IMG/VR virus record: IMGVR_UViG_3300034374_002231 | Location: 668-64,667 of that record | Reading direction: 5' to 3' (one strand) | From: a virus | Lineage: Duplodnaviria; Caudoviricetes | DNA length: 64,000 nucleotides | Part shown: positions 581 to 60,441 of the stretch, in pieces | Numbering within the stretch: position 1 is the first letter of the stretch | How the letters are laid out: the number at the start of each line of letters is the position of its first letter | The notes under the pieces: generated by a model | The model's database searches: none | Seen by the model: the letters and a program-made list of their open reading frames with translations, nothing else | Told to the model about the DNA's origin: nothing | Program-made: the position numbers and the translations under genes

Positions 581-616
581 ACCCCGCAGGTGCCCCCCGC
601 CCTGCGGGGTTTTTTA
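581..616 (+). terminator. Rho-independent terminator where the two arms converge
   Basis: ACCCCGCAGG...CCTGCGGGGT 10-bp stem followed by a T run. Confidence 0.75.
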
Positions 617-6600: not shown

Positions 6601-8071
6601 TAGGCGCAGTGCTAGGTTCCGGTGCAGGGGCGACCTCCTTCGGTTTCGCCAGATAATCCGCAATAGCGATTTTGGTCTCTTTTTTGACCCCGGGCAAGCG
6701 TGAATACCGTTGCAGTTCTTCTAAGAACCGGTTGTCGGTTTCGATAGCATTCTTCAGCTTGGAACGAATCGGCGCACCGGGCGCTACTTTCAACTCGTCA
6801 AGGACCACGCTGGCGGGACGCGCCGGACGCCTCAATGGCGTAGCTGGGACGGACGGGAACCCGGTCGTCTGACGTGCTGTCGCAAGGTCGGCGGAAGCTG
6901 TCAGATAGTCACTGATCTTGGTGCGTGTGGCTGTAGGAAGCGCCGTATTCGAACGCAGCTTGGCCAGCGCCGCACGGCCTTCAGTGTCGTAGAATGGGCG
7001 GCTACCGTACTTCTTTCGAAGCGGAACGGTTTTCGGCAGCCCCAGATCATCAGCCACATCGCTGATCGTTTGCGGAAGCCCACGCGGGATGCCTGCCAGC
7101 CCCGGGGCGGCTTCAGGCGCAGCCGCTGGAGCCTCTGCATCGTCTTCTATTTGGGGGCGAGAGCCGCGGAACGGACCCGACACGCCGCCGACAGCACCGC
7201 CAAGCAGACCTGCTGCGATGCCGACTTCGATGTACTCTTGGATGGCCTCGTCATCATCAAGCGGAAGCCCCGCCTGTGCGCGTTCCAGAACCTGTTGTGT
7301 GATTTCTGTGGGGACTTCGACGGCTGCACCGGTTGCTGCAAACTGTCCCGACCGCACAAACAGGTTCTTGCTGGCCGGAATACTGATCCCGAACAGCTTA
7401 CCAGCAAGGAGCAATCGCTCCCCAACAGAGTTCAGAATGGACTGACCGCCCGCCGCAAGAAACGCGTCCATGCGGTCTTTCTCTGCAAGTTCTCCAGCAT
7501 TGACCTGCGTCTCTTGGCGCTGGATGTTGCGACCATAGAAAAACGGCATAGCGGTCGCAGTGCCCGCCGCAAGGCCTGTCAGAGGTGTACCAAGAACTGT
7601 ACCTGCCGCCGTAGCCCCAAGGGTTGCCCCCATTTCGGGCGCGGTCTGCCCCGCAATCTCACCGAGGTAGCTCAGCCCACTTCCTAGACCCTTGATGTCC
7701 GCAGAGGTCATAGGTGCCGGAAGTTCGATGGACTCTCGCAGCTGCTCGCGCCGCGCACTTTCTTCCATGCCACTACCGAGGTTCTCAAGGAACCCAAAGC
7801 CGGTAGCCTCGCCGATGTCGCGTGCCGCGGTGCCCAACGCGCTGTAGGCAGACGTCTTGCCCCGGTCAAAACCACGACCAAGGGCAGTGCCGTCGCCTTC
7901 GGGAGTAAGTTGATCCCCCGTAAAATACTCAGCCAACGCATTAAGACGCGCCCGATCTTGGCTGATGTACTGCTGCATCTCGGCAAAGTCTTGGTCTGAC
8001 GGGGCATCCCCCCCATGGTTGAACAGATAGACTTTACCGGTCTGCTCGTCAGTATACTGATACTGCCCCAT
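614..8071 (-). CDS. Giant internal virion/ejection protein (polyvalent-protein-like) with a zincin HExxH motif
   Basis: 2485 aa, last gene of the virion operon; Gly/Ala-rich hydrophobic N-terminal region; LLHEMIHAAT...EFAAEA motif; helical C-terminus. Confidence 0.75.
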   Translation of the reverse strand: MGQYQYTDEQTGKVYLFNHGGDAPSDQDFAEMQQYISQDRARLNALAEYFTGDQLTPEGDGTALGRGFDRGKTSAYSALGTAARDIGEATGFGFLENLGSGMEESARREQLRESIELPAPMTSADIKGLGSGLSYLGEIAGQTAPEMGATLGATAAGTVLGTPLTGLAAGTATAMPFFYGRNIQRQETQVNAGELAEKDRMDAFLAAGGQSILNSVGERLLLAGKLFGISIPASKNLFVRSGQFAATGAAVEVPTEITQQVLERAQAGLPLDDDEAIQEYIEVGIAAGLLGGAVGGVSGPFRGSRPQIEDDAEAPAAAPEAAPGLAGIPRGLPQTISDVADDLGLPKTVPLRKKYGSRPFYDTEGRAALAKLRSNTALPTATRTKISDYLTASADLATARQTTGFPSVPATPLRRPARPASVVLDELKVAPGAPIRSKLKNAIETDNRFLEELQRYSRLPGVKKETKIAIADYLAKPKEVAPAPEPSTAPSQAPSEGAVDGQLDDGGRREGVPSDTRRVGKRGRGPSVPEDTPGAAAPAGTPLGIPSPDPRESAGGTGQQPGAVKAAPEAAPIALPLPDGTQADVAMYDITSFVEKAAGVSRAPRAIAIREVNGVKVPFYLSTGEGGKTDVPSGKWYPFFGLSKTGWFNKSSGRAITDYYFTPELRAAAEALDASVGDIRGDTTVPTVTRDTDTAFVDFINQDMRPSEPNTEAANTNIIDTIKRIKQGTAPEAAPQAAPEATPEATLAAEQMPPNLRRPVVPEPTLRRPEGATVTPTGQLIPAGVAGVQGKQLEAQKAAQREPIAQQMTTKARLEQEVKDLQAALTRRAVSARAKEEGVKPSVVKDRLQRQLNRTSAQLYNVTSYLRSEAGRQQAEIEGAQDAVNLMERADNVSLRQQLRDWFRSNASEELVREADADSASALVARERARLKPVEEAKNEAEARALQRERDRLADREARLLAQEAAFDQTTAGDKRTLLDLLTTSKEQLKKDKNARNAHAYFSKYPDPNDALAAIAFDLSSPDVPKIRRGSKATPLSAIEQGTGRNAATAASEWVEKNLSFNSIAYMDEQIAEYTEGRADALGNTLDQEQMTRREREKNEAAFLKSYYDAESALRGTEAFEDTTPDALTAEELDAIGKGFGDALLRAPRRSIVYGLQAPFHPDIVRALNKGDLRGALRGLADTSTDPYISKLAAGLIPYVGKTKVYTTDNVSYAREVLRDDDTGKIDPGAYLLLTAKSKAAIAKVDPAVAELMQDAIFLNSATGMNAHILLHEMIHAATIKALTDPTNPVRARLESLRKQVEPLLDQDYGLKNTLEFAAEAMSNQEFQAKLAQLYPNDRKASAFTQFWRNVVNFVRTRVLKWQPVDYTAMSVGPEAGAGKDSVFDEVDFLVRTIFDAAPEVRADNNLYEDSLIPLRAEARLNGPAGRIKDFTKLDQQKIDNFLAAGGASRSGLKRFALDAFVGLVNMLEPAGKYLGRSNVDDLYKALTGHSGAIHRLNQRARQTVDDIMKLVPKDKTDLFNDVRLISSELQIDPRRKESFYTGYTLAYKKLNAKGEMDGVELLSYPTKAARDSALVDLNARLKQDTDAGKAASRTQARVHRDFDQETLDAYRKIRRQWEALGPDGQKAYNKVIALFENMHKETGRVLKARLDEMLPFQKKLSETLYKDIYEKILADQVVVPYQPLQRQGRFWLAYFYNDPETKQPTLAKQSFLTEGDRAAAYKELQRLKQAEPDLGITDVQAYVKIEDLFRTDNQPAGKFVMDIGRMLERDARAAGNAAQAKALAEGATVEQSRAAAQSALGAEMARARDIQGKIVKLALEMTPERSILNSYRRRQNIKGYLGDKTPISQKLSRTDTTNLLLTKAASLSRQLADMEYGSKARAAVNRMTQEFTEGQLSGRLGLDEQVKAQVYLEAMQDYAGAIYRDRSRISKLATSLGFGLTLGANISSATLNFFAIPTIIAPYLSGQYGMRQTVKALGNAMRVYGGSGRERTVEFINERGETETRRVKTNLVDYSLDNYEMDENSRYYYLREEGRARGLFHNSINYDTLDIEGSIGTSIWDKLNRTSGFLFHHLERSVRESTLIAAYDLEVQRLQAEKAKRGQPTDLTVEEKQAAANKAAYMTEMTNGSISAAAAPKLAQGNIGAPFYLFRRYPLAMYNLLLSVANKSFPSKAKLAEMYGEGTPEYNEALMMRKVARFQFGGIVGSVGLWAGASGLPMYGAFAALFDTLFTDDDEEDFDTIVRTSLGELGFKGIGNYFFGTEMSSRIGLSNTFYREPLRADSQGAVMNLIEGAGGPIASLLIKYSERIPALLSEGEYYRAAEASLPASIGSVMRALRFAQGGAETLRGDVIYDDFGPYSLMAQAMGFSSADYIRQLEVNTQLKNIDTAIVEKKSKLMRRLNLARRNNDAIGMREVLADIREYNQRHPQQAITRDTLKRSARTFEQTTQRAVNGMIFNNRNLPIIRQMAADYDSPTTFWEQFGLN

Positions 8072-47436: not shown

Positions 47437-48651
47437 ATGTTTATGGGTAAGTTGACACCCGAGCAACGGGTGCAGAAAGCCGTGATCGACATCATGGCCA
47501 AGGATCGCTACGCCGCACTGGCTGGCATTCTGATGATCGGCGAGAAGCGTGTGGAGTATGACGCTGACAAGTGTCCGACCGCGTACACCGACGGTAAGAA
47601 CGTGGTGTTCGGTGCTGACTTCATGGACGGCATGACCGACGCAGAGTTGCGGTTCCTCGCTATCCACGAGGAGAAGCACAAGATGTATCGCCACCTGACA
47701 ACGTGGGAGTGGATGTGGAAGGAGGACAAGCAGCTTGCCAACCAAGCGTGCGACCACGTCATCAACATTGAGACAGTGGACGAGAACCCTGACGGCTTCG
47801 CCACTATGACAGGCAAGCTGGCCGAGGGTTGCTGTGACTTCAAGTACCGTGGGTGGGATGCTGCACAGGTATTCCATGACCTCAAGCGCAAGCGTGACGA
47901 GCAGGGCGGCAGCAGTGGTGACGGTGATGGTGACTACGACGGCAGCTTCGACCAGCATGGCTGGGAAGAAGCGCAGGACATGACCGCCGAGGAGAAGCGC
48001 GAATTGTCCCGTGCCGTGGACGAGGCCATACGTCAGGGTGTCTTGCTTGCAGGTAAGACCGGGTCCGGTGGCGACCGCAGCTTCGAGGAACTGCTGACAC
48101 CGCAGGTCAACTGGCGTGACGCGCTGCGTGAGTTTGTACAGAACACATGCGCTGGGTCTGACTACTCAACGTGGCGCAAGCCCAACCGTCGGTACGTCGG
48201 GATGAACATCTACATGCCCTCCGGTGTCAGCGAGACAGTGGGCGAGATGGCCGTGCTGATCGACACGTCAGGGTCTACCTACGCACCGGGTGTGCTGCCC
48301 GCCTTCATGTCCGAGGCCAAGGCCATAGCCGAGACTGTCCGACCGGAGCGGGTGCACATCATCTACTGGGACACCTCGGTGTGTCAGGCTGAGGTGTACG
48401 AGCAGGACGAGTTGGACAAGATGATCTCCAGCACGCAGCCCAAGGGCGGTGGAGGCACCGACATTACCTGTGCCATCGACTACATGGCCGAGCATAACAT
48501 CAAGCCGCAAGCATCCATCGTACTGACTGATGGTTATCTGTTCGGTGGCTGGGGATCGTGGTCACACCCTGTGATGTGGTGCGTGATCGACAACAAGAAC
48601 GCCAAGCCCGACACGGGCAAGGTCGTACACATTCGTGCGAGTGACATGTGA
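47437..48651 (+). CDS. Metallopeptidase-VWA protein (DUF2201-like)
   Basis: PTAYTDG, HEEKH, ACDHVIN, WRKPNRR, MIDAS DTSGS, GGGGTD, LTDG. Confidence 0.85.
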   Translation: MFMGKLTPEQRVQKAVIDIMAKDRYAALAGILMIGEKRVEYDADKCPTAYTDGKNVVFGADFMDGMTDAELRFLAIHEEKHKMYRHLTTWEWMWKEDKQLANQACDHVINIETVDENPDGFATMTGKLAEGCCDFKYRGWDAAQVFHDLKRKRDEQGGSSGDGDGDYDGSFDQHGWEEAQDMTAEEKRELSRAVDEAIRQGVLLAGKTGSGGDRSFEELLTPQVNWRDALREFVQNTCAGSDYSTWRKPNRRYVGMNIYMPSGVSETVGEMAVLIDTSGSTYAPGVLPAFMSEAKAIAETVRPERVHIIYWDTSVCQAEVYEQDELDKMISSTQPKGGGGTDITCAIDYMAEHNIKPQASIVLTDGYLFGGWGSWSHPVMWCVIDNKNAKPDTGKVVHIRASDM

Positions 48652-48700: not shown

Positions 48701-49732
48701 ATGGCTCGTTACTACAAAGCAATCAACAGTTTCGCCGACATTGAAACTGCCTATAACCTAACCCTCCCTCTGCGTGGCGCGAAGAACAAGGACAAAGACA
48801 TCCGTCCCATTGGCGACCGCAAGCGCAAGTGGGAGCGCATCGTCAAGGTAAGCAACAACTGCTACGCCCTGACTAACGGATGGCACCCGGGCGAACCGGA
48901 TTACTGGATGCGTGATAGCGCGGTTGATGGTGAGCCTCCTATCAGCTGGATGGCCAAGTATTCGCCCATCGTCTGGCGTAGGCATAAAGATGGAACCGAG
49001 ACCGTCACCCTGCGTAACGGTACAGGCTCCCGTCAGCACAATAGCGTGTATGATTTCCTGCAGCGCCACGTCCCGAGATATATGTTTTTCCGACAGACGA
49101 ACGTCGGACACCAGTATATCAGCGTGCATGGCACTGACTACTACTTGGCGAAGGGTCGCACCATACCGAAGCAATACGCTGCTCGCGCGTTGAAGTACGA
49201 CTCGGAGCGTGTGTGGTACCAGACCACTGACGACAACGCGTCTCTGACCTTCAAGGTGTTGGACGGCCGCTATGAATTTGTTGGCGAGGCGCTGACGGTA
49301 CCGAAGCCGCCCAAGAAGCGCGTAGATAAGGCCCGCAAGGCAGCCCTCAAGCCGCACATCGACGCGTTCCGTGACTGGGCTATAGCTATCCTGCCCATGA
49401 TGCCTTCTGACTGGAAGTCCGAGAACGAGGTGCTGAACCAAGCCCGCACCGTACCTATCGGTGCCTTCCGTCTTGGGTACTCTGTTGGGTGGGCCTTCAA
49501 TACCTACAACTCAAAACTAGCAGAGCAAATTATACAGCACGACCAGCACGCGCTTCGCGTTTTGTTGGCGCTTGACATGCGTGCGGTGGTTCGTTCTGCG
49601 CTTGAGACTGAGCACGGGAGCGGCACGAACTACACACACCTGCACCTGAATGCCGGGTTCCAGACCGCCTATAACCGCTGGGTCAACAGGGTACTCGGAC
49701 TTATCAACGAAGTACAAGGAGATGCGAAATGA
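48701..49732 (+). CDS. Hypothetical protein
   Basis: 343-aa ORF; box and RBS AAGGAG upstream. Confidence 0.75.
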   Translation: MARYYKAINSFADIETAYNLTLPLRGAKNKDKDIRPIGDRKRKWERIVKVSNNCYALTNGWHPGEPDYWMRDSAVDGEPPISWMAKYSPIVWRRHKDGTETVTLRNGTGSRQHNSVYDFLQRHVPRYMFFRQTNVGHQYISVHGTDYYLAKGRTIPKQYAARALKYDSERVWYQTTDDNASLTFKVLDGRYEFVGEALTVPKPPKKRVDKARKAALKPHIDAFRDWAIAILPMMPSDWKSENEVLNQARTVPIGAFRLGYSVGWAFNTYNSKLAEQIIQHDQHALRVLLALDMRAVVRSALETEHGSGTNYTHLHLNAGFQTAYNRWVNRVLGLINEVQGDAK

Positions 49733-50589
49733 ACGCAGAATGGATGGAAGTAGACGACCTCAAGCCAGTGAGTGATAACACGCACCCAAACCTGTTGGCC
49801 TTTATGCGTGGCGTTCAGGCCAAGATACCCGGCATACAGTTCGGGCAGCGCGGTCCTTCGGCAACCAGTGCAGTGTTTGCGTACCTGCCCGGAGAACACG
49901 TGACTATGGGCCGTATTGGCTACGGCGATTTCAAGGTCCGAGGTAAGGGCACCGCCGAATACATCGTGGAGTCCGACTATATTAATAATTGCAAGTACAG
50001 CAGCTCCAGTAGGCAGCATCACATGGCGATGACTAAGGACCGCGAAAAAGCGGTGACGAACGCACAGAAGTTCTTGCGTCGGATGCCTACTCCTGTAGTT
50101 GCGCTCCGTTTGTTTGCTGGGGCAAACGCGTTTGTGCACGATAGAGCATCCAAACTCCGGGACGCAGCTGCAAAGGCCGAGTCGAAGGTGTTTACGACGT
50201 CGCTCTCTAGATACGGTTCAGGTGCCGTACGCATACGACTGCTGGCTGAAATGCAACGCCTTATAGATACAGATCACATCTTCAGCGATCCATCGTTTGG
50301 TACGGATCTTGCCGCTATGCTTACTGCACGTGCCGAGTATGACGCGCTTAAAGACGGCGTGGAGTTTACATTCGTGGGCGTCAAAGACACGCCGTTCGGT
50401 CAGCAGATAGAAGTAATAGATTTGGATAAGTACGGATGTGACGGAAGTGATGTACGCATCTTCACCGAAGCTGATATGCCTACTGACCTCGCAGGTAAAG
50501 TGGCCGTACTGTCCATGCTTCAGCCTCGCGAATACGTCGATGGTGTAGGCTGCCGTCGTACAGAGCGGGTGTTCTATGTCGTACGGTGA
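49729..50589 (+). CDS. Hypothetical protein
   Basis: 286 aa; C-terminal MPTDLAGKVAVLSML..VDGVG..FYV. Confidence 0.75.
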   Translation: MNAEWMEVDDLKPVSDNTHPNLLAFMRGVQAKIPGIQFGQRGPSATSAVFAYLPGEHVTMGRIGYGDFKVRGKGTAEYIVESDYINNCKYSSSSRQHHMAMTKDREKAVTNAQKFLRRMPTPVVALRLFAGANAFVHDRASKLRDAAAKAESKVFTTSLSRYGSGAVRIRLLAEMQRLIDTDHIFSDPSFGTDLAAMLTARAEYDALKDGVEFTFVGVKDTPFGQQIEVIDLDKYGCDGSDVRIFTEADMPTDLAGKVAVLSMLQPREYVDGVGCRRTERVFYVVR

Positions 50590-50821
50590 GTTGTCATATC
50601 GCGTGGAATATCTGCCTGACAACGAGCATGTCAAAGTACTATGTTTTACGTCGAAACAACTTGCATTGATACCGGATGGTACGTATCGTATAGATACCCT
50701 CCCGCAAATTCTGCGCGACAAATTGGCTGTTCTAGCCATACTGGAGACCCCACCTCCGCCGGTTGATGTGGCGGGAGTGGGCCAGCGCGTAGGAGAGCGA
50801 GCGTTCTGGGTGTACCTCTAA
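50576..50821 (+). CDS. Hypothetical protein resembling the C-terminus of the previous gene product
   Basis: LPQILRDKLAVLAIL..VAGVGQR..FWV. Confidence 0.7.
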   Translation: MSYGELSYRVEYLPDNEHVKVLCFTSKQLALIPDGTYRIDTLPQILRDKLAVLAILETPPPPVDVAGVGQRVGERAFWVYL

Positions 50822-50880
50822 CAACGTACGAGGCGTGTTATACGCCTCGTATAACATCACCAGTTACATGGAGACGACGA

Positions 50881-51231
50881 ATGGGAATGACGCCCGAAGC
50901 AAAGATCAAGAAGGTTGTCGCACAGCAACTCAAGGACATGGGTGCGTACTACTTTTATCCAGTGACAGGGGGGTACGGGGGCAGCGGAGTGCCCGACATT
51001 GTTGGATGCTACAACGGTAGATTTTTTGGCATCGAATGCAAAGCCGGGAACAATAAGCCAACCGCACTGCAACAGAAAAACATCGACTCCATCTTAGCCG
51101 CAGGTGGCCTGTCATGGGTCGCCAATGAGAAAAACATGCGTATGACCGAAGAAATTTTACTCGCAGCAGAAGAAGTCCTACGCGAAGACGAAAGGATCGC
51201 ATCTGAAAATAACCGAACCATGGGGGACTAA
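50881..51231 (+). CDS. VRR-NUC domain nuclease
   Basis: TPEAKIKKVV..GGYGGSGVPDIVGC..FFGIECKAG..PTALQ. Confidence 0.88.
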   Translation: MGMTPEAKIKKVVAQQLKDMGAYYFYPVTGGYGGSGVPDIVGCYNGRFFGIECKAGNNKPTALQQKNIDSILAAGGLSWVANEKNMRMTEEILLAAEEVLREDERIASENNRTMGD

Positions 51232-51325
51232 CCTACGGGAGTTCCTACTCATCATGTTCCAACACGACATCGTGTGGAAACCAAACAAACCCGGCGATAC
51301 GCCACCCTTTTAAAGGACTAAAACA

Positions 51326-51967
51326 ATGGCTGATACAGCATATGAAGCGATAACGATCACTAACGAAATACACACAGGTGCAGCTTTCGGTATTCAACAT
51401 GGCACCGGACGCAGCTGCTATATCCCAGCAACCGTTATGTATTCTAGTGGCTCCCGCCCCGGAGACGTCGTGCAAGCGGTTCTGATAGACAACCCGAGCA
51501 ACGACCCCGACATCCGGAACCGCACGCCGTATTTGGTACGGTTCATCAAGCCCATGGTAACCCCGACACAGCTCGAACTGCCACTGGAACAGCCCTCGCA
51601 GCTGGCGCAAGAGATCGTCGCAAAGCTGGGCGGCGCCGCCCCGACCCCGGCCCCGGCCCCGGCTCCGGTACCTACGATAAAGGAGCGTGCGGCAAAGCAC
51701 GTCGAGGCGACCATGATGGCCGGTGGGGTGTGGAGATTTGCGACTATGTTTGAGGATTTCATGGCGGCCGAGGGTAAACCCGGAGCAGCACGCTCGGATC
51801 ACATGGAGGAGTATTGGGCAGTGGCGCATGTTATGCGTCGTTTGTTTGAGACTGATCGCTGCGCGAAATGGGTTCTTTACAATCGAGCCTCAAACACCAA
51901 AGCCTCAAGAGAGTGGTATAGCTGCCGCCCTGAAACCATCGACGTAGCGGAGTTCGACGATGAGTAA
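51326..51967 (+). CDS. Hypothetical protein
   Basis: 213 aa; RBS AAGGA; PAPAPAP linker. Confidence 0.7.
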   Translation: MADTAYEAITITNEIHTGAAFGIQHGTGRSCYIPATVMYSSGSRPGDVVQAVLIDNPSNDPDIRNRTPYLVRFIKPMVTPTQLELPLEQPSQLAQEIVAKLGGAAPTPAPAPAPVPTIKERAAKHVEATMMAGGVWRFATMFEDFMAAEGKPGAARSDHMEEYWAVAHVMRRLFETDRCAKWVLYNRASNTKASREWYSCRPETIDVAEFDDE

Positions 51968-52448
51968 GCCGTTAACAGTCAACGAACAGCACGTATGGGC
52001 ATACCTCCTGCAACACCGAAACGCCCGGGCCTTTGAAGTGGCCGAGGCTGTTGGCGTGAGTGAGGCGCTCGTTGCGGCCATGATGGACCGCATTTCCTCT
52101 GACAACTGGCGGGAGGAGGTAACCCCTCCCGCTACCAGCGGCGTCAAGTATGACAGTGACAAGCTGCCGATGCACCTCTTGCCACCTGAACTGCTGGAAG
52201 GCACCGCTGCGGTGCTGGCCTTCGGTGCTCGCAAATACACTCCCCGCAACTGGGAACTCGGCATGGAGTGGCACCGACCCTACTCTGCCCTGATGCGTCA
52301 TATGTTGGCGTGGTGGGGTGGAGAGGATCTCGACCCGGAGACTGGGCTGTCACACACATGGCATGCGGCATGCTGCATCGCGTTCTTGATGGCCTACGAA
52401 CAACGCAAGATCGGAACAGACGACCGACCGAGGGAGCACACCGCATGA
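51960..52448 (+). CDS. HTH fused to a dATP/dGTP diphosphohydrolase domain (DUF5664-like)
   Basis: GVKYDSDK..LLP..VLAFGARKY..RNW..ALMRH..GEDLDPETGLSH..HAACC. Confidence 0.85.
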   Translation: MSKPLTVNEQHVWAYLLQHRNARAFEVAEAVGVSEALVAAMMDRISSDNWREEVTPPATSGVKYDSDKLPMHLLPPELLEGTAAVLAFGARKYTPRNWELGMEWHRPYSALMRHMLAWWGGEDLDPETGLSHTWHAACCIAFLMAYEQRKIGTDDRPREHTA

Positions 52449-52825
52449 GGACCATTCACTTTAACCTTATCAGACGCCGCCGCTGGCGCGAATGTGCGGA
52501 GGCTCTGGAGGCCCACGGCAACGCGACCGATGCGGCAACGGCGCTGGGGTGGAAACGACAGCAGGTCTACGACGTGATCCACCGAATGAAGAAAGCCGGG
52601 ATCATTGAGCAGACAGCGCCCTACACATGCAGCTACGCCTCGTCGCAGCAGCGCGCGGGCACTATGCGGGCTGGCCGTATCTTGGAAGCAGCACAGGCAT
52701 ACGACCGAGACTTCCAGCGGTGGTTGGTAGGACAGATACCAGAGGGCGGCACGTTGGCAGAGTTGCTCATGGCCATGGCGTTTGACGCTTACATTGAAGA
52801 AGAAAGCCAGAAGGAGGCAGCGTGA
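52445..52825 (+). CDS. HTH-containing hypothetical protein
   Basis: GNATDAATALGWKRQQVYDVIHRMK; ATGA coupling. Confidence 0.65.
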   Translation: MRTIHFNLIRRRRWRECAEALEAHGNATDAATALGWKRQQVYDVIHRMKKAGIIEQTAPYTCSYASSQQRAGTMRAGRILEAAQAYDRDFQRWLVGQIPEGGTLAELLMAMAFDAYIEEESQKEAA

Positions 52826-53025
52826 TGGGTAAGTATTACACAACACTGTCCGACATGCACAGGGTAGAAGCTAACCACCTGCGGGACAAGCTGCGGATCG
52901 CTATGGCGGCGCTGGATGTAATCATCCGCTTTGGAAACGAAACGTACCCCGACCCCGAGCGGGCTGTTACCGACATGAAGGTGGTAGCGGAGAGAGCGCT
53001 TGAAAGGATCGAAGGCGATGAGTGA
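52822..53025 (+). CDS. Hypothetical protein
   Basis: 67 aa; RBS AAGGAGG; coupled. Confidence 0.65.
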   Translation: MMGKYYTTLSDMHRVEANHLRDKLRIAMAALDVIIRFGNETYPDPERAVTDMKVVAERALERIEGDE

Positions 53026-53272
53026 GGTTGCAAGGATCGGCCCCGCCGATGACGGGGTGCAGCGGTTTTACCGGCTGTATGCGCGGCGCAAGTCTGATTT
53101 CGTGGTTGCCGAGCATGACTTTTGCTGCCGCACACTTGGTGGTGCGGTCGCGGAACATAAAGCCAGAAAGCATGCAGAGTGGTTGATGAACACCAAGCCT
53201 GCGTACGATCAGGTCCGCATCACCCTGCACGTTGTCCATCCAATCATGGAGAAGGGGTTTGAAGATGAGTGA
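53018..53272 (+). CDS. Hypothetical protein
   Basis: MSEVARIGPADDG...; overlaps the upstream stop. Confidence 0.6.
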   Translation: MSEVARIGPADDGVQRFYRLYARRKSDFVVAEHDFCCRTLGGAVAEHKARKHAEWLMNTKPAYDQVRITLHVVHPIMEKGFEDE

Positions 53273-53753
53273 CGATCTGGTGAAGCGGGCAAGGCATAAT
53301 GCTCTGTCTGACATGCCCCATTATGCAAGCGTTGAACTCATTGAAGCGTTAGCCGACCGCATCGAGGAGTTGGAGCGGGAGCGGGTTCTATCAAAGGCGG
53401 CGTATGATGGTGTGTCGTCGCTGCTTTTGAGTGTCCAGCAGGACTGCATCAAGGAACACAACCGCGCCGAAGCCGCAGAGGCCGCGCTGAAAGAGGCGAT
53501 TGAAAAAGAGCTGGATGCAATCAGCACTCTGGACGCTTGGTTCGACCGAAGGGAACTTGGTCACGCCGCCGTGGATCAGGCAGTTGTTGACGCCGCTTCA
53601 GGGTATCTCAGAACATCAAGATGCGGAGGAATGCCTCAAGAGGAAAGTGACCTGATCCTTGGCGTGATGCAGAACATGGCTAGGCTTGGACTGTTTGCCG
53701 ACCTGTTTGCCCGCGCCTACCCCGCCGAACTGAAAGGGGAGGGTCGGGGATGA
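53265..53753 (+). CDS. Modular-array gene 1
   Basis: MSDDLVKR...ADRIEELE...AEAAEAAL...AELKGE. Confidence 0.75.
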   Translation: MSDDLVKRARHNALSDMPHYASVELIEALADRIEELERERVLSKAAYDGVSSLLLSVQQDCIKEHNRAEAAEAALKEAIEKELDAISTLDAWFDRRELGHAAVDQAVVDAASGYLRTSRCGGMPQEESDLILGVMQNMARLGLFADLFARAYPAELKGEGRG

Positions 53754-54124
53754 GTGACGATCTGGTGAAGCGGCTGCGTGAAGATCGACCCGTGACACAG
53801 GATATGGCAAGCACGATGCAATGCGCCCTGCAAGACGCAGCAGCCGACCGCATCGAAGAACTGGAGGATAAGCTGAACTGGGTCATCGTAGAACGAGATG
53901 AGACATTTGCTTTGATGCTGGATCGTGCACAAACAGCGGAAGCCAAGCTGGCAAAGAATGAAGCCCTGATGCAAGCAGGCTTTGCGGAATACGAACACAG
54001 GCTGGCGAAGGCGGTGGAGGCTTTGGAGAAACTGGCACGGCTGGGTAACGGCGACCTTTACGGCAACAGCGATGGCAACATGATTGCCCGCACCACCCTC
54101 GCAGAACTGAAAGGAGATAAGTGA
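53750..54124 (+). CDS. Modular-array gene 2
   Basis: MSDDLVKRLR...AADRIEELEDKL...AEAKLAK...ARTTLAELKGDK. Confidence 0.8.
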   Translation: MSDDLVKRLREDRPVTQDMASTMQCALQDAAADRIEELEDKLNWVIVERDETFALMLDRAQTAEAKLAKNEALMQAGFAEYEHRLAKAVEALEKLARLGNGDLYGNSDGNMIARTTLAELKGDK

Positions 54125-54585
54125 TGACTAAGCCAGACTGGGAAAACTTCGCCAAGGCTGTGCTGACAGACTGGCCAACTGGTGATCTGGACGGCTCTGT
54201 TCTGTTCGACTTGTCGCTGCAATACGGCATGATCCAAGAGGTGCCGGGTGGGTATAACTCTGACCACCATATCGACGCAGACTGTATCTGCCCGGAAGAA
54301 GGCGATCCTTGGTATGAATACACCTTCCGAGGCGAGGCTGGGCCGGGGCTGTATTCCATTTCCAACATGACCAAGCGCATCCAAGAATTGCATGACGAGA
54401 ACGCACGGCTTCGTGATGCCGTTTACATTGATGACTTGACTGTAACCTTGCAGGGGAAAGACAGAGCCGTTGCGATTGCAGGAATGGAGCGGGCTTTAGA
54501 CTTAATCAATGCAGACCTAACGCAAGAAGCAAAAGTGGCTCTGCGCACCACCCTCGCAGAACTGAAAGGAGAGAAGGATGAGTGA
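54121..54585 (+). CDS. Modular-array gene 3
   Basis: Unique acidic N-terminal domain, KRIQEL, ends RTTLAELKGEKDE. Confidence 0.75.
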   Translation: MMTKPDWENFAKAVLTDWPTGDLDGSVLFDLSLQYGMIQEVPGGYNSDHHIDADCICPEEGDPWYEYTFRGEAGPGLYSISNMTKRIQELHDENARLRDAVYIDDLTVTLQGKDRAVAIAGMERALDLINADLTQEAKVALRTTLAELKGEKDE

Positions 54586-54808
54586 CGATCTGGTGAAGGC
54601 AGCGGTGCTGGCACAAAACACAATAGAAGCGATCTATCAATGGGTCGATAAGGTCGAAAAGGCTGGCGGCACAACTTCAATCGAAGGGATTGCCGTTGCC
54701 CATGCAATGTTCAAAAGCCTTCAAAGCAACAGAAGTAGACTTGATAAGCTAATAACACAGCCGCTGGAGAAAGCCCTCGCAGAACTGAAAGGAGAGAAGG
54801 ATGAGTGA
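54578..54808 (+). CDS. Modular-array gene 4
   Basis: MSDDLVK...ALAELKGEKDE. Confidence 0.75.
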   Translation: MSDDLVKAAVLAQNTIEAIYQWVDKVEKAGGTTSIEGIAVAHAMFKSLQSNRSRLDKLITQPLEKALAELKGEKDE

Positions 54809-55157
54809 CGATCTAGAAGTGCTTGGGTCAGACGGTATTAGACGTACATATGATGAGCACTACGACACCATGATGGATGTAGAACAAGACCCAACTGGTG
54901 CTTGGCAGGCCATACATAACCAACACGACCGCATCGAGGAACTTGAGGACAAGCTGGATTGGGTTATCACGGAACGGGACGAGACTTTTGCTTTGATGCT
55001 GGATCGTGTGCAAACAGCAGAGGCCAAGCTGGCGAAGGCGGTGGAGGCTTTAGAGAAGCTGGCACGGCTTGGCAATGGCGACCGTTATGGCAACAGCGAC
55101 GGCAACACGATAGCCCGCACCACCCTCGCAGAACTGAAAGGAGAGAAAGATGAGTGA
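54801..55157 (+). CDS. Modular-array gene 5
   Basis: MSDDLE...DRIEELEDKL...AEAKLAKAVEAL...ARTTLAELKGEKDE. Confidence 0.8.
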   Translation: MSDDLEVLGSDGIRRTYDEHYDTMMDVEQDPTGAWQAIHNQHDRIEELEDKLDWVITERDETFALMLDRVQTAEAKLAKAVEALEKLARLGNGDRYGNSDGNTIARTTLAELKGEKDE

Positions 55158-55539
55158 AGATCTAGTGAAGCGGCTGCGAACATCTTGGGATGCTGACCGC
55201 AGTATAATTTCACAGACTGACAACTGGATGAGGGAACGGCAAGAAGCAGCCGACCGCATCGAGAAATTAGAGGCCGAACTGCACCTGATGAAAACATCAG
55301 GTATCGCAGAGGTGGCCGCGCGAAACCCAAGCGTCATGGAATACATGCGGCATTGGGAAGGAAGAGCAGAAGCAGCAGAGGACAAGCTGGCGAAGGCGGT
55401 GGAGCTGGTCAATACAGCGTTTAATGAAGGCTTTGGCGAGGGAATGAATGACGTGATGCGCCGCCGTGGTGGAAAGTCTTGGTATGAAAGCAGATCTCGC
55501 AAGCGCATCGCAGAACTGAAAGGAGGCCCCGATGCCTGA
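55150..55539 (+). CDS. Modular-array gene 6
   Basis: MSEDLVKRLR...AADRIEKLE...AEDKLAKAVE...IAELKGG. Confidence 0.8.
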   Translation: MSEDLVKRLRTSWDADRSIISQTDNWMRERQEAADRIEKLEAELHLMKTSGIAEVAARNPSVMEYMRHWEGRAEAAEDKLAKAVELVNTAFNEGFGEGMNDVMRRRGGKSWYESRSRKRIAELKGGPDA

Positions 55540-55708
55540 CAATCGCGGGGTCAACGAGGCGCTGCGGCGGGCCGGGTACAAATGCTTGCCCGACTGGTGG
55601 GTGACTGAAGCAGAGTTTGACGTGATTTGGAGGATGGCCCATAATCACGAGGACATCGTGAATGAAATCAGGGCTTTCTATCGGAACAAGGATGACGACG
55701 ATGGATGA
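55532..55708 (+). CDS. 58-aa hypothetical protein
   Basis: RBS AAGGAGG; MPDNRGVNEALRRAGYKCLPDWWVT. Confidence 0.65.
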   Translation: MPDNRGVNEALRRAGYKCLPDWWVTEAEFDVIWRMAHNHEDIVNEIRAFYRNKDDDDG

Positions 55709-55904
55709 AGAAGACCTGACCCCAAACCAGTTGGAGGTTGTTTCGAAGTTGTACCCCCGCGTGCAATACCTTATGGGTAAAGGCCTGACGGAGAAGCAGG
55801 TTGTTGACACGCTGGTGGTCGGTGAGGGGTGGCCTGTCGGTGCCGTTCAGGCGACTATGAGCCGGGTCAAGCGCTCACGCCCCAATCGAAGCAGCGCCAC
55901 TTGA
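55701..55904 (+). CDS. Small hypothetical protein
   Basis: MDEEDLTPNQLEVV...; overlaps the upstream stop; start uncertain. Confidence 0.5.
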   Translation: MDEEDLTPNQLEVVSKLYPRVQYLMGKGLTEKQVVDTLVVGEGWPVGAVQATMSRVKRSRPNRSSAT

Positions 55905-56058
55905 GGACGAACGTGCCGGGTGGCAGGGCTGGTGCAAGAGCGTTGTTGACGTAGTCCTCTGTTGCCATCTGGCACATTTCGATTGTTTCGAATACCGGCG
56001 CTGGGGGCGTATAGCACTCCCCACTCATCGAACATATGAGGATCAACGGACTGAACAT
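55867..56058 (-). CDS. Small Cys-containing, possibly exported protein on the opposite strand
   Basis: MFSPLILICSMSGEC...C...WRCFDW; promoter-like sequence just upstream. Confidence 0.6.
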   Translation of the reverse strand: MFSPLILICSMSGECYTPPAPVFETIEMCQMATEDYVNNALAPALPPGTFVLKWRCFDWGVSA

Positions 56059-56104
56059 GCGCTGATACTACCACAAAATATAACACCGACAAAGGAGAAC
56101 AACG

Positions 56105-57934
56105 ATGGACCTGATTACGCTCGATTTCGAGACGTACTACGACAGGGAATACAGCCTGTCGAAGCTGACGACAGAAGAGTACATCCGCGACCCGCGGTTC
56201 CAAGTTATCGGGGTGAGCACCAAGCTGAATGACGATGAACCTGTCTGGGTTACAGGGAAGGCCAGCGAGGTGCTGACACATCTGCACACGTTGCCGTGGG
56301 AGAATGCGATCATGCTCTGTCAGAACACCATGTTCGACGGGGCGATCATGACGTGGCGCTGCGGTATCAAGCCGAAAGTGTTGGCCGACACGATGCTTAT
56401 GTCGCGCGCCATTTATGGCGTGGAAGTATCACATAGCCTCAAGGCTATATCCGAGCGGCTGGGCATCGGGGTCAAAGGCGACGAGGTAATCAACGCGCTG
56501 GGCAAGCGCCGGGCCGACTTCACACCAGAACAGATGGAGCGGTACGGTGAATACTGCCGCACCGATGTTACGCTGACATACATGGCGTTCAAGAAGTTTA
56601 TAGAGGCAGGGTTCCCAAAGAAGGAACTCAAGCTGATAGACACTACATTGCGCATGTTTACTGATCCGGTTCTGGAGTTGGATCGCGCACATCTGGAGAA
56701 GCACCTCGCCGAAGTCACTGCGCGCAAGAGCGCACTGCTGACCGATGCAGGTGTCACCGACAAGAAAGACCTGATGTCGAACCCGAAGTTTGCAGAGATG
56801 CTTCTCTCGTACGGTGTAGAACCGCCCATGAAGGTCAGCCCGACTACTGGCAAAGATACATACGCCTTTGCCAAGGGTGACGAGGAGTTTGTCGCTTTGT
56901 TGGAGCACGACGACGAGAACGTGCAGACACTCATGGCAGCGCGTCTAGGTAACAAGTCCACACTGGAAGAGACCCGCACGCAGCGGTTCATCGACATCGC
57001 CAAACGTGGCCCTCTACCCGTGCCTATCAGATACTACGCGGCACACACCGGACGCTGGGGCGGTTCTGACAAGATCAATCTGCAGAACCTGCCGAGCCGT
57101 GGACCGAACGCGAAGCAGATCAAGAACTCCATTGTGGCCCCGGCAGGGCACAAGCTGATAGACGCCGACTCCGCACAGATCGAAGCCCGGGTGCTGGCGT
57201 GGCTGGCCGAACAAGAAGATGTGGTGCAGACCTTCGCCGAGAATGGTGACGTGTACAAACGCATGGCTGCCAAGATCTTCAACAAGGACGAGGGGGACAT
57301 CGACAAGCAGGAGCGCCAGATCGGCAAGGTTGTGATCCTTGGCGCAGGATATGGTGTTGGTCATAACAAGCTGCAGACGTTTCTCAAGCTGCAAGCCGGG
57401 GTCGAGGTAGACCTCAAGGAAGCCAAGCGGATCATCGACGTGTACCGCAGTTCCAACGATAGGATCAGTGGCCTGTGGCGCGAAGCGGACAACATGCTCC
57501 GCGAAATGTCCAAGGGTAACAGCAAGCAGTTTGGGCGGCCCGGTGTGCTGACAGTGCATGGTGACCGCAGCGCCATACAGCTGCCGAGTGGGCTGGACAT
57601 CAAGTACACGGACCTCAAAGCGACACCGGGTGAGATCGGGTACGACTACACATATCAGACCCGCAGAGGGCCGAACAATATCTATGGCGGGAAGGTCATA
57701 GAGAACGTGACGCAAGCACTGGCACGTTGTATTGTGGGCGAACAGATGTTAAAGATTGCCAAACGGTACCGTGTGGTGCTAACTGTACATGACTCCGTTG
57801 TGGCATGTGTACGCAGCGAAGAAGTAGACGAAGCACAGGCATACATCGAACAGTGTATGCGCTGGACCCCTGACTGGGCAGAGGGCTTGCCGGTAAACTG
57901 TGAGTCCGACGTCAGTCGCAGATACGGAGAATAA
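56105..57934 (+). CDS. Family A DNA polymerase
   Basis: Exonuclease LDFETY; HTGRWGG; motif A DSAQIEARVLAWLA; motif B RQIGKVVILGAGYG; motif C TVHDS. Confidence 0.95.
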   Translation: MDLITLDFETYYDREYSLSKLTTEEYIRDPRFQVIGVSTKLNDDEPVWVTGKASEVLTHLHTLPWENAIMLCQNTMFDGAIMTWRCGIKPKVLADTMLMSRAIYGVEVSHSLKAISERLGIGVKGDEVINALGKRRADFTPEQMERYGEYCRTDVTLTYMAFKKFIEAGFPKKELKLIDTTLRMFTDPVLELDRAHLEKHLAEVTARKSALLTDAGVTDKKDLMSNPKFAEMLLSYGVEPPMKVSPTTGKDTYAFAKGDEEFVALLEHDDENVQTLMAARLGNKSTLEETRTQRFIDIAKRGPLPVPIRYYAAHTGRWGGSDKINLQNLPSRGPNAKQIKNSIVAPAGHKLIDADSAQIEARVLAWLAEQEDVVQTFAENGDVYKRMAAKIFNKDEGDIDKQERQIGKVVILGAGYGVGHNKLQTFLKLQAGVEVDLKEAKRIIDVYRSSNDRISGLWREADNMLREMSKGNSKQFGRPGVLTVHGDRSAIQLPSGLDIKYTDLKATPGEIGYDYTYQTRRGPNNIYGGKVIENVTQALARCIVGEQMLKIAKRYRVVLTVHDSVVACVRSEEVDEAQAYIEQCMRWTPDWAEGLPVNCESDVSRRYGE

Positions 57935-57935
57935 C

Positions 57936-58604
57936 ATGAGCGCAGGTGCGTGGTCGTTCAGTCGCATGAAGGGGTTCGAGACGTGCCCGAAGCAGTATTA
58001 TCACGTCAACGTGTTGAAGGAGTTTCCCTTCAAAGAGACTGATGCCACGCGCTATGGTACCGAGTTCCACAAGGCGGCCGAGGACTACATTCGGGACGAC
58101 ACCCCTGTGCCGGAACGGTTCTCGTTTGCCATGCCGACGCTGGAGGCCCTCAAGGCCAAGCCGGGCGAAAAGCACTGCGAACTCAAGATGGGTCTGACCG
58201 AAGACCTGCAGCCCTGCGGGTTCTATGACAAGAACGTGTGGTTCCGCGGCATCGTAGACCTCGCCATCATCAACGGCGAGAAAGCGTTTATCGTGGACTA
58301 CAAGACGGGCAAGTCTGCAAAGTACGCGGACACTGGGCAGCTGCAACTGATGGCCCTGTCTCTGTTTGCGCACTTCCCCGAAGTTAAACGGGCCAAGGGC
58401 GGGCTTTTGTTTGTCATCGCGGATAAGTTTGTGGGCGCGGACTTCAATGCGTCAGATCACAACGTGCTGTGGTCTCCGTGGATCAAGAAGTACGCCCAAC
58501 TGCAGAAGGCCCACGAGACAAACGTGTGGAATCCGGTACCGAGTGGGCTATGCCGAAAGCATTGTCCCGTGGTAGAATGTCCGCATAACGGACAGCACAG
58601 GTGA
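57936..58604 (+). CDS. Cas4-like PD-(D/E)xK exonuclease
   Basis: WSFSR..FETCPKQY, GTEFH, GIVD, VDYKTGK, QLQLMAL, C-terminal CRKHC..C. Confidence 0.88.
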   Translation: MSAGAWSFSRMKGFETCPKQYYHVNVLKEFPFKETDATRYGTEFHKAAEDYIRDDTPVPERFSFAMPTLEALKAKPGEKHCELKMGLTEDLQPCGFYDKNVWFRGIVDLAIINGEKAFIVDYKTGKSAKYADTGQLQLMALSLFAHFPEVKRAKGGLLFVIADKFVGADFNASDHNVLWSPWIKKYAQLQKAHETNVWNPVPSGLCRKHCPVVECPHNGQHR

Positions 58605-58607
58605 CGC

Positions 58608-58877
58608 ATGCCGTACGTCAACAAACCACGCCCCTACGCGAAAGAGTGGCAGCAAGAGAAGGCCCGCAACGAGAAGCCAGCCCGTGCAGAGCGGGCCAAG
58701 GCACGGCGGGCCTTCGACAAAAAACACGGTAAGAAAGCCCGAGAAGGGCTGGACCTCAGCCATCGCAAGGACTTGTCCCGTGGTGGTGATAATTCGGACG
58801 GTGTACGTCTGGAAAGCCCGAGCGCTAACCGCGCCCGTGGCGGTGCCTTGAGCAAGCCCCCAAAGAAAAAGGCCTAG
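58608..58877 (+). CDS. Small basic HNH-like protein
   Basis: GLDLSHRKDLSRGGDN...SPSANRAR. Confidence 0.6.
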   Translation: MPYVNKPRPYAKEWQQEKARNEKPARAERAKARRAFDKKHGKKAREGLDLSHRKDLSRGGDNSDGVRLESPSANRARGGALSKPPKKKA

Positions 58878-58905
58878 TTATACGGGCCGTATAACGGAGA
58901 ACCAC

Positions 58906-60441
58906 ATGAAGATCGTTGACAACCGCGCACTGCAGCTGCAGCTGCGCAACCCTACAAGAGTCACTACTGTCATCCCAAAGAGCAAACAGATCGGCCCGCA
59001 CGAGGTGTTGGTGCACTGGGGGGTAGAAGAAACACAGACGCTGCGGGAGTTGAACATCAAGGCCCCGTCGCCGATTTCGTCGCGTTACGACTGGCCCGGT
59101 CAGTACCCGCCGATGTCTCATCAGAAGGCCACCGCGGACTTCCTTACCATGCACCGCAAGGCCTTTTGTTTCAACGAACAGGGTACAGGTAAGACTGCCA
59201 GTGCAATCTGGGCTGCGGACTTCCTTATGAAACAGAAGAAGGTACGCCGCGCGCTGGTCGTGTGTCCTATCTCCATCATGGACTCGGCTTGGCGCGCGGA
59301 CCTGTTCAAGGTCGCTATGCACCGCACGGTAGACATCGCGCATGGCAGCGCGGACAAACGTAAGAAGATAATAAACGGCGGTTCTGAGTTCGTTATTATC
59401 AACTACGACGGCATCGGTATCGTCGAAGAGGAGATACGCAACGGTGGGTTCGATCTCATCATTGTGGACGAAGCCTCACACTACAAGAACTCGCAGAGCA
59501 AGCGGTGGAAGACCATGCACCGTCTGCTGCGTCCTGACACGTGGCTATGGCTCATGACGGGTACACCGGCAGCGCAGTCGCCGACCGACGCCTTCGGCCT
59601 TGCCAAGCTGGTAAGCCCGCACAACGTGCCGAAGTTCTACGGCGCGTTCCGAGATATGGTACAACGCAAGGTCACGCAGTTCCGCTGGGAGAACAAACCC
59701 AACGCGGTGGAAACGGTGCACCGGGTGCTGCAGCCCGCCATTCGGTTCTCCAAGGACGACTGTCTCGACCTACCAGATATGCTGTACACAAGCCGCCACG
59801 TCCCCATGACGAGGCAGCAGGAGGTGTACTACAAGAAACTGAAAAAAGATTTCATGATGGAAGCGGCTGGGGCTGAAGTCACGGCTGTTAACGCCGCCGT
59901 GAAAATGAACAAGCTGCTGCAGATCAGTGCAGGTGCGGTCTACACCGATGACGGTGACACACTAGAGTTCGACATCTCAGAGCGATACAAAGTGCTGCGT
60001 GAGGTCATCGACGAGACGACCAAGAAGGTGCTGGTGTTCGTGCCGTTCAAGAGCACAATCCGCATGTTGTCGGAGGCCCTGCAAGCTGACGGTATCACCA
60101 CCGAAACTATTTCGGGCGATGTGAGTGCTGGAGCACGGACCGACATCTTCAAGCGGTTCCAGACTACACCAGACCCACGCGTGCTAGTCATTCAGCCGCA
60201 AGCAGCCGCACATGGTGTCACGTTGACCGCAGCCAATACCGTTGTGTGGTGGGCACCCACAGCCTCACTGGAGACGTACGCGCAGGCCAACGCCCGCATC
60301 CATCGTTCCGGCCAGACGTCTAAGTGTACTGTAGTGCATCTGGAAAGCGCCCCTGTGGAACGCCGCCTGTACAGCATGCTGGAACAGCGCATTGACGTAC
60401 ATGCGCAAATCCTCAATTTGTACAAAGAATTGCTTGACTAG
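58906..60441 (+). CDS. SNF2-family helicase
   Basis: EQGTGKT, IVDEASH, MTGTP, HGVTLTAA, QANARIHRSGQ. Confidence 0.92.
   Translation: MKIVDNRALQLQLRNPTRVTTVIPKSKQIGPHEVLVHWGVEETQTLRELNIKAPSPISSRYDWPGQYPPMSHQKATADFLTMHRKAFCFNEQGTGKTASAIWAADFLMKQKKVRRALVVCPISIMDSAWRADLFKVAMHRTVDIAHGSADKRKKIINGGSEFVIINYDGIGIVEEEIRNGGFDLIIVDEASHYKNSQSKRWKTMHRLLRPDTWLWLMTGTPAAQSPTDAFGLAKLVSPHNVPKFYGAFRDMVQRKVTQFRWENKPNAVETVHRVLQPAIRFSKDDCLDLPDMLYTSRHVPMTRQQEVYYKKLKKDFMMEAAGAEVTAVNAAVKMNKLLQISAGAVYTDDGDTLEFDISERYKVLREVIDETTKKVLVFVPFKSTIRMLSEALQADGITTETISGDVSAGARTDIFKRFQTTPDPRVLVIQPQAAAHGVTLTAANTVVWWAPTASLETYAQANARIHRSGQTSKCTVVHLESAPVERRLYSMLEQRIDVHAQILNLYKELLD

Follow-up and report, generated by a model that had tools for sequence, protein, structure and literature searches.

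In the tail-fibre adhesins of T-even phages (glycine-rich motifs of gp37/gp38), short in-frame motifs flank variable segments, and exchanges between them give modular proteins. In T4-type phages, PeSL cassettes are marked by short conserved repeats at the gene boundaries of hyperplastic regions, which are composed of small genes of unknown function (PMC2839356). According to this account, PeSLs are intergenic stem-loops comprising a promoter and a terminator, and recombination between them inserts, deletes or replaces genes, which embodies the 'linker' idea of Botstein and Campbell (PMC2839356). Ea22 of lambdoid phages is described as a highly diverse protein of the early region that combines a coiled-coil with a short N-terminal part and a C-terminal domain (PMC10834534, PMC7093339). 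Here, we describe an array of six same-strand open reading frames (ORFs), g1-g6, at positions 53265-55539 of the 64,000-nt stretch of phage DNA that was analysed (the window). It represents 64,000 nt of the 64,667-nt IMG/VR record IMGVR_UViG_3300034374_002231 (Caudoviricetes), which CheckV rates as complete. The ORFs of the array overlap by 1, 4 or 8 nt at their start and stop codons.

The genes of the array share three conserved blocks, A, B and C, separated by variable segments. Results of our analysis show that, both within a phage and from phage to phage, these segments are combined in many ways and that sequence similarity breaks preferentially at the blocks. The blocks themselves are nearly identical in DNA, synonymous sites included, among genes that are otherwise unrelated. 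We consider it probable that the early proteins encoded by the array are coiled-coil dimers of a mosaic family, and that homologous recombination at the short conserved blocks shuffles the genes of this family within a hyperplastic region. The original prediction, made from this DNA alone, was of a cassette system based on recombination at in-frame repeats. The shuffling of segments is supported at the level of phage populations, while no dedicated or programmed machinery was found among the 20 ORFs of the window that were scanned.

Conserved blocks and re-assorted segments

Block A, whose reference copy lies at 54544-54598 (plus strand), encodes the C-terminal sequence RTTLAELKGEKDE with the stop codon, the Shine-Dalgarno sequence AAAGGAG and the overlapping start of the next gene with MSDDLVK. 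This 55-nt unit is present in six copies of 60-100% identity to the reference, the others being located at 53716-53770, 54089-54143, 54767-54821, 55116-55170 and 55498-55552, and its start half stands alone at 53264-53288. Its core, GCAGAACTGAAAGGAG, gave six matches (up to 3 mismatches) against 0.51 expected, a number reached by 0 of 100 shuffles, and the start half gave four matches against 0.00 expected. Block B was matched five times (up to 2 mismatches) against 0.52 expected, including the sites 53355, 53846, 54927 and 55252, and block C three times against 0.00 expected; repeat families add to the latter a copy at 53931 and a weak one at 53470. Within the window all three blocks are confined to the array.

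The ORF list, repeat families and shuffle counts confirm what had been predicted about the six overlapping same-strand ORFs with common blocks, including the six copies of block A, its N-terminal half at 53264 and the four sites of block B listed above. The description of all six genes as being built from three blocks holds for g2, g5 and g6 but not for g3 and g4, which carry block A only (g4 also its N-terminal half). Genes g2-g5 have the complete C-terminal motif xTLAELKG, located within about 8 codons of the stop and accompanied by the overlapping start, and g1 and g6 have a part of it. The central RIEELE / EAKLAKAVE zipper is present in g2, g5 and g6, represented by block B only in g1, and missing from g3 and g4. 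The distinction between B and C as two separate blocks stood in part: both occur above chance, but in most relatives they are contiguous and form two halves of one central motif, RIEELEAKLAKAVE. Because of this contiguity, the B-to-C segments of the window can be recognised as inserts in one central motif. Genes g2 and g5 share, as was predicted, two stretches (112 nt at 85% identity and 123 nt at 90%). The spacings of these stretches, 1081 and 1027 nt, differ owing to a 54-nt insert in g2, which is placed between two copies of block C.

The conservation of the blocks at the nucleotide level was assessed with a degenerate back-translation scan for TTLAELKG[DE], which is blind to codon choice. 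It gave 47 matches in 41 contigs, representing 38 unique contexts. The prevailing codons of TTLAELKG in these 38 contexts were, in order, ACC (34), ACC (37), CTC (36), GCA (38), GAA (38), CTG (37), AAA (29) and GGA (33), against a background in family genes of 0.29 of Ala codons for GCA and 0.47 of Glu codons for GAA. In the EAKLAKA motif, AAG was used in 35 of 35 instances at both Lys positions, GCG in 29-30 of 35 at two Ala positions (background 0.26), and GCC in 24 of 35 at the third Ala position. In DRIEELE, CGC was found in 29 of 31 instances (background 0.31). The central motif played no part in finding the loci, and the core GCAGAACTGAAAGGA is conserved at about 90% or more per position in the 22 junctions that were outside the selection by both search patterns. 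A few junction copies encode the same peptide with other codons; therefore, the peptide does not force the DNA sequence.

The combinations of segments were analysed in sets of family proteins comprising 101 distinct proteins in the loci, 216 pooled distinct proteins (for the count of g5 patterns) and 332 pooled proteins (for a segment graph). The N-terminal (N), middle (M) and C-terminal (C) segments of g5 occur in all eight possible presence/absence patterns among the 216 proteins: N only in 43, M only in 40, C only in 30, M with C in 3, all three in 2, N with M in 2, N with C in 1, and none in 95. From the 332 proteins, 89 were dropped for lack of the block A motif or of an initial M and 67 for lack of B or C; among the 176 left, 154 had N- and C-segments of at least 12 residues. 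These 154 proteins comprise 75 N types and 89 C types in 142 distinct pairs; at least two partners are found for 21 of the N types (maximum 22) and for 23 of the C types (maximum 20).

The same picture emerges from five fetched contigs with array genes (G001-G005), the gene order of which is different in every one. In G003, a single gene consists of the N-segment of g1, the middle segment of g2/g5 and a new C-segment; its alignments to window positions 53006-53368 (90%) and 53842-54586 (84%) overlap by 18 nt at block B. In G001, a g5-like gene has no segment between B and C and is immediately followed by the gene that borders the array downstream (the MPDNRG gene), and therefore g6 is missing there. 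The C-segment of g5 (55025-55144) is found in G002 at 100% identity over 120 nt between flanking genes of 72-74% identity, while in G001 positions 55020-55152 are matched at 99% (133 nt) and the g5 N-segment at 71%. In G004, positions 54926-55045 are matched at 98% (120 nt). The conserved neighbour genes in these contigs are 72-77% identical, and the regions beside the 98-100% segments 71-77%. Additionally, G004 (L113, reverse complement 3948-4571) encodes a 207-residue chimera in which the B-M-C segment of g6 (95% to 55254-55389) is fused to the 3' part (52884-53025, 93%) of gM, a small gene that precedes the array. The variation seen concerns replacement of whole segments and not point changes. 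As many as 224 of the 390 informative ends of DNA alignments fall inside the blocks, which make up 28% of the sequence (family genes with flanks). A fixed gene order and fixed pairings of segments in related phages, with breaks outside the blocks, had been named as the pattern speaking against shuffling; in G001-G005 the orders and pairings differ, and the breaks are at the blocks.

The protein family and the distribution of its blocks

In the AF2 monomer model of g5, built with 43 alignment rows (mean pLDDT 75.9), a long helix (residues 31-90) spans block B, the middle segment and block C, and a second helix (100-112) corresponds to block A. The homodimer model obtained a score of 0.53 versus 0.00 for the best control, with the controls passed. 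Of 30 proteins with structures solved as pairs, 20 reached the mark applied to this score, as did 1 of 23 solved as single chains, and the dimer runs showed contact agreement of at least 63% and partner pLDDT of at least 68. The predicted contacts are in register (45:45, 48:48, 77:77, 80:80 and 84:84), and the tightest of them involve I45, L48, L77, A80 and L84, which are invariant block residues; blocks B, C and A are thus placed in the predicted dimer interface. These models support a parallel dimer of g5, and the monomer and dimer models together speak for the coiled-coil scaffold that had been suggested. In the 43 aligned members all near-invariant columns, except M1, are within the three blocks. 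Many N-segments of the family proteins in L007-L114 carry paired CxxC motifs resembling zinc ribbons, or a conserved APERIW motif, and this suggests small, independent domains at the variable ends.

Of 959 candidates from our search for relatives of g5 at the protein level, 310 proteins scored E<=0.001, and all were of metagenomic origin. They are named only as 'hypothetical protein' or bear scattered automatic labels, none of which suits a small protein of the coiled-coil type. When 1.84 billion representatives of 50%-identity clusters were searched with a profile, 2187 matched at E<=0.001 (233 at E<=1e-10), which sets the extent of the family at 2187 or more such clusters. A Foldseek search of the PDB with the g5 model gave no match at E<=0.001, as can be expected for a model that is a long helix. 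Pfam, PHROGs and NCBIfam returned only sub-threshold coiled-coil noise for the array proteins and for the 43 members. A tblastn search of 50,697 GenBank phage records with g5 gave no match at E<=0.001, and ESM Atlas returned only unnamed clusters, at 0.89. No published description of the family was found, also not in the Cobavirus paper, and the family motif strings were absent from the searched literature, the scope of which did not include supplements and subscription papers. The family appears to be previously undescribed, and it is without a name or a Pfam, PHROG or NCBIfam model.

The search of IMG/VR that had been proposed as a check of the prediction revealed the exact 18-nt core of block A in 76 contigs. 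In 66 of the 72 unique contexts the core belongs, in frame, to the 3' end of an ORF and has an ATG close by, and the sequences that flank it on either side are unrelated between contigs. In 596 Gb of bacterial genomes, the core was matched 13 times, which is about the number expected by chance; only three of these matches are of the junction type, all on contigs of metagenome-assembled genomes, one of them labelled Marivivens. The carrier loci form 43 clusters by shared DNA (at least 1500 nt), a number that depends on the threshold (18, 43 or 59 clusters).

Block A also matches roseophage SIO1 (NC_002519) over 42 nt at 95% identity, the rest of the 2.7-kb query being unmatched. This phage has two tandem members of the family, gp13 and an unannotated 78-codon ORF upstream of it. 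Both ORFs end with TLAELKG[KE]TDE and a stop codon, accompanied by an overlapping ATGAGTGA start, and gp13 carries ADRIEELE and AEAKLAKA. They are true family members, like the genes of the array. SIO1 differs as a 39.9-kb podovirus with two members versus six in the window's phage, and its members have no annotated function. A DNA search of GenBank phages with the stretch from the central motif to the junction detected seven SIO1 records and one uncultured Caudoviricetes record; a short match at 80% in two Gordonia phage records is probably due to chance. The only cultured carrier of block A is the marine roseophage SIO1, and the one uncultured GenBank record originates from a spring. The array region (52800-56100) is represented in 22 public sequencing runs, all labelled freshwater metagenome except X22 (organism not recorded). 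Twelve of them (X1-X12) hold at least 0.9 of the sampled words of the region, and nine runs come from eight other studies, a count that leaves out a possible source run and same-sample duplicates.

Explanations of the block pattern

In the explanation that we favour, shuffling by homologous recombination, a canonical member of the family comprises a variable N-segment (often MSDDLVKRLR), the central zipper ADRIEELEAKLAKAVEAL, a variable C-segment and the C-terminal helix ARTTLAELKG, followed by a junction of fixed geometry with a Shine-Dalgarno site and the overlapping next start. Homologous recombination between identical blocks of ~15-55 nt would swap the N, middle and C segments in frame. 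The exchange partners may be tandem paralogues and co-infecting phages, with recombination functions supplied by the phage or the host. By the same recombination whole genes could be gained or lost between junction blocks, and repeated conversion may keep the blocks homogeneous. The blocks would serve both the protein (dimer interface and C-terminal helix) and its expression (ribosome site and coupled start). Because the blocks form both the translation-coupling signal and the predicted dimer interface, folding and expression would be expected to persist in recombinants. The presence of near-identical block DNA in many genes and phages would make the blocks joining sites for otherwise unrelated segments. 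The position and diversity of the proteins would be compatible with dimeric coiled-coil adaptors, the variable ends of which bind different targets early in infection; an early host-interaction role may likewise be proposed from position, size and diversity.

Several observations weigh against this explanation. The bipartite segment graph contains only 5 independent cycles, and the sampling was enriched for g5 relatives. As many as 166 of the 390 alignment ends are outside the blocks, and at the joint of the G004 chimera the two alignments overlap by 10 nt and the identity is limited to 10 nt, which points to a join by microhomology rather than by a full block. The codon counts given above are a description and not probabilities, because the instances are phylogenetically non-independent. 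The AAAGGAG sequence within block A is a ribosome site; hence, a part of the conservation of this block needs no recombination. Among 20 polymerase-related loci with upstream sequence only one, L146, has a family member upstream of the polymerase. No annealing-type recombinase was identified in the 20 window ORFs scanned, where the only related find is a PD-(D/E)XK nuclease (57900-58604). The apparent exchanges were seen in comparisons of phages or contigs and not of variants inside one phage population. Except for cultured SIO1 and its strains, all combinatorial evidence comes from metagenome assemblies, in which repeats of 15-55 nt could yield some chimeric contigs.

Of the alternatives, the one that survives best, though we find it rather unlikely, is that block A is mainly a translation signal (ribosome site, fixed spacing and overlapping start), conserved by selection on mRNA, with recombination as a by-product. 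Besides the presence of AAAGGAG, the fixed geometry of the junctions is consistent with this view: of the 68 junctions that have both a stop and an ATG close by, 62 have the ATG at a distance of 7-8 nt downstream of the core, and 36 show a start/stop overlap of 8 nt. In folding, the RNAs of the six junctions do not surpass shuffled sequences (z -1.39 to +1.43), in agreement with an open initiation region, and block A precedes also unrelated genes, e.g., the start of the DNA polymerase gene in L061. However, the conservation extends ~20 nt upstream of the ribosome site, through ACCACCCTCGCAGAACTG. Moreover, B and C lie in the middle of genes, where a ribosome site cannot account for their conservation, yet they show equal position-specific fixation of codons, and identical variable segments are exchanged also at B and C.

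It is improbable that the combinations are assembly chimeras, formed by assemblers crossing between family members at shared blocks. Logan unitigs do end at each junction block (in 4 runs), which adds to the reservations listed above, as single contigs may for this reason be chimeras. Block-containing bins are also several-fold deeper than others (e.g., 48.5 vs. ~13 in X2), and there are many short-sided joints at the blocks. Such joints were rejected as rearrangements of the window's phage; their sides are of 20-32 nt, and they probably derive from other family members in the samples. In turn, the blocks do not exceed 55 nt, and usual sequencing reads are longer than that. Cultured SIO1 has two tandem members with the same blocks. 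A protein identical to that of g2 (P0007) is recorded on 23 contigs, the g3 homologue is found at 7 places, some of them overlapping on the same contigs, and the 12 runs mentioned above hold nearly the whole region. Assembly chimeras leave unexplained SIO1, the recurrence of proteins on many contigs and the steps in identity.

Slightly less credible still is the view that the genes are ordinary tandem paralogues, in which the motifs are functionally conserved and the rest has diverged with no exchange of segments. The location of the blocks in the predicted dimer interface would explain their amino acid conservation, and the confinement of the near-invariant columns (apart from M1) to them is also consistent with this view. 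Nevertheless, one variable segment has many partners, and all eight combinations of the g5 segments exist. Segments of 98-100% nucleotide identity lie beside regions of 71-77% in the same gene neighbourhood, and synonymous sites of the blocks are nearly fixed while the flanks are unalignable.

A cassette system of the dedicated kind, similar to integrons or diversity-generating retroelements and equipped with a site-specific recombinase or mutagenic machinery of its own, can practically be dismissed: only the cassette-like layout, with a repeated junction bounding genes, recalls it, while there are no inverted repeats of at least 12 nt within 200 nt in 52800-56100 (an integron gene cassette was rejected with 0 attC-type inverted repeats), the junctions are coding and in frame, the carriers fall into 43 clusters at the 1500-nt threshold, and neither an integrase nor a reverse transcriptase was found among the 20 ORFs scanned with Pfam, the rest of the window being unscanned.

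A more far-reaching version of shuffling by homologous recombination, which we put forward tentatively and regard as somewhat doubtful, is that the blocks are standardised recombination linkers kept by selection. They would form a parts kit common to the whole community and to different lineages, with a universal junction (C-terminal helix, ribosome site and start) by which any phage already possessing one copy could accept any gene cassette, and with two internal in-frame linkers re-assorting the N, middle and C modules of dimeric coiled-coil effectors; in this way otherwise unrelated co-infecting phages would share one pool of host-interaction modules. If true, no natural example of the Botstein-Campbell linker model would be clearer, and it would operate at sub-gene resolution. 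Phage mosaicism is usually accounted for by rare illegitimate joins filtered by selection, or by intergenic regulatory repeats; here, blocks conserved to synonymous sites mark the breakpoints of exchange at both the gene and the sub-gene level. Should the blocks act as linkers, they would provide a testable system for fast diversification of early proteins with fold, oligomerisation and expression intact, and SIO1 with its cultured host would be suitable for such tests. The blocks also explain why regions of this kind break metagenome assemblies.

Genomic surroundings and comparison with known systems

The phage is 64.7 kb in size, and its large terminase is encoded on the minus strand. The array lies a short way upstream of the DNA polymerase gene of a plus-strand replication block. 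Besides this family A DNA polymerase (56105-57934), the block encodes the PD-(D/E)XK nuclease, a DUF927 primase-like protein and an SNF2 helicase. The array is preceded by two more small genes, likewise coupled. The first, gM (52825-53025, plus strand, 66 aa), ends with ALERIEGDE, overlaps the next start by 8 nt and is a diverged member of the family, in which DKLRIAMAALD resembles block C. The second, g0 (53018-53272, plus strand, 84 aa, MSEVARIG...FEDE), has no family motifs; its position in the array varies among relatives, and in G005 it is preceded by a copy of block A.

All six array genes are on the plus strand. Gene g1 (53265-53753, 162 aa) combines the N block MSDDLVK with a degenerate block A (PAELKGEGRG before the stop codon); between them are block B (53355-53368) and, at 53470-53504, a stretch weakly similar to block C. 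Its N-segment was found with other downstream parts in G003 and L077. Gene g2 (53750-54124, 124 aa) consists of the N block, block B (53846-53859), the middle segment, two copies of block C (53931-53965 and 53985-54019), the C-segment and block A. The product of g3 (54124-54585, 153 aa, MTKPDWENF...) carries block A only, at its C-terminus, apart from a weak B-like stretch at 54372-54390. Homologues of g3 in G001, G003 and G004 are of 84-94% nucleotide identity and have different neighbours. In g4 (54578-54808, 76 aa) only the N block and block A are present. A copy of the junction block lies on either side of this gene in direct orientation (54544-54598 and 54767-54821), and the gene is missing downstream of the g3 homologues in G001 and G003. 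Gene g5 (54801-55157, 118 aa) comprises block B (54927-54940), the middle segment, block C (55012-55046), the C-segment and block A (55116-55157). Gene g6 (55150-55539, 129 aa) starts with MSEDLVKRLR and has block B (55252-55265), a middle segment of its own, block C (55370-55404), a C-segment and a shortened block A (RIAELKGGPDA before the stop codon). In other contigs the N, middle and C segments of g6 are all found again, apart from one another. The 58-codon MPDNRG gene (55532-55708, plus strand, 58 aa), the start of which overlaps the last block A, is a conserved neighbour downstream of the array, with 72% nucleotide identity in G001-G003.

Comparison with L146, the closest backbone relative (polymerase identity of 92%), delimits a replaceable, hyperplastic region at 52432-55996 that holds the array. 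L146 aligns at 84-91% with window positions 49043-52431 and 55997-60000, and in place of 52432-55996 it has 2.47 kb of other genes with one family member and only 42 nt in common with the window. Within this replacing stretch (L146 5050-5600), two adjacent ORFs consist almost wholly of Gly-rich repeats (GSGNG and GYG units). Farther upstream of the array, the ORF at 47437-48651 (plus strand) encodes a DUF2201 putative metallopeptidase with a VWA-like domain, and the ORF at 51960-52448 (plus strand) the N-terminal domain of dATP/dGTP diphosphohydrolases (Pfam PF18909, E 1.8e-34). Enzymes of the dATP/dGTP diphosphohydrolase type occur in phages with modified bases. The largest ORF of the window is located at 614-8071 (minus strand, 2485 codons).

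Among known systems, Ea22 resembles the array proteins in being a coiled-coil protein of the early region that is diverse among phages. Assignment of the array to the Ead/Ea22 family (Pfam PF13935) was rejected: none of the six array proteins matched it at E<=1, nor did any of the 43 members (0/43) at E<=0.01, and the only link, an Atlas feature score of 0.80, is at chance level. A relationship in sequence was thus not detected. The tail-fibre adhesins of T-even phages share with the array the short conserved in-frame motifs around variable segments and the formation of modular proteins by exchange. However, they are virion proteins that set host range, while the array encodes small proteins of the replication/early region, and the junction of the array carries also the expression signals of the next gene.

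The likeness to PeSL cassettes is that the repeats of the array bound small accessory genes in a hyperplastic region, with gain and loss of genes between the copies. The differences are that the array junction is coding, uniting the C-terminal helix of one gene with the ribosome site and start of the gene that follows, and that two further blocks inside the genes allow in-frame swaps of protein segments. No stable hairpin was detected in the six junction RNAs. In 50500-56300, sigma-70-like promoters were found at 4 sites versus 2.8 +/- 1.6 in shuffles and terminator-like sites at 8 versus 5.6 +/- 2.6, with none of either at the junction block. The lack of a stable RNA fold, of promoter or terminator signals and of inverted repeats indicates that the junction is neither a PeSL-type cassette boundary nor an attC-like site. 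The array appears to behave as the linker model of modular phage evolution and PeSL-mediated shuffling would have it. What is new with respect to the known linker systems is that the junction itself is coding and includes the start of the next gene, and that two further in-frame linkers are located inside the genes.

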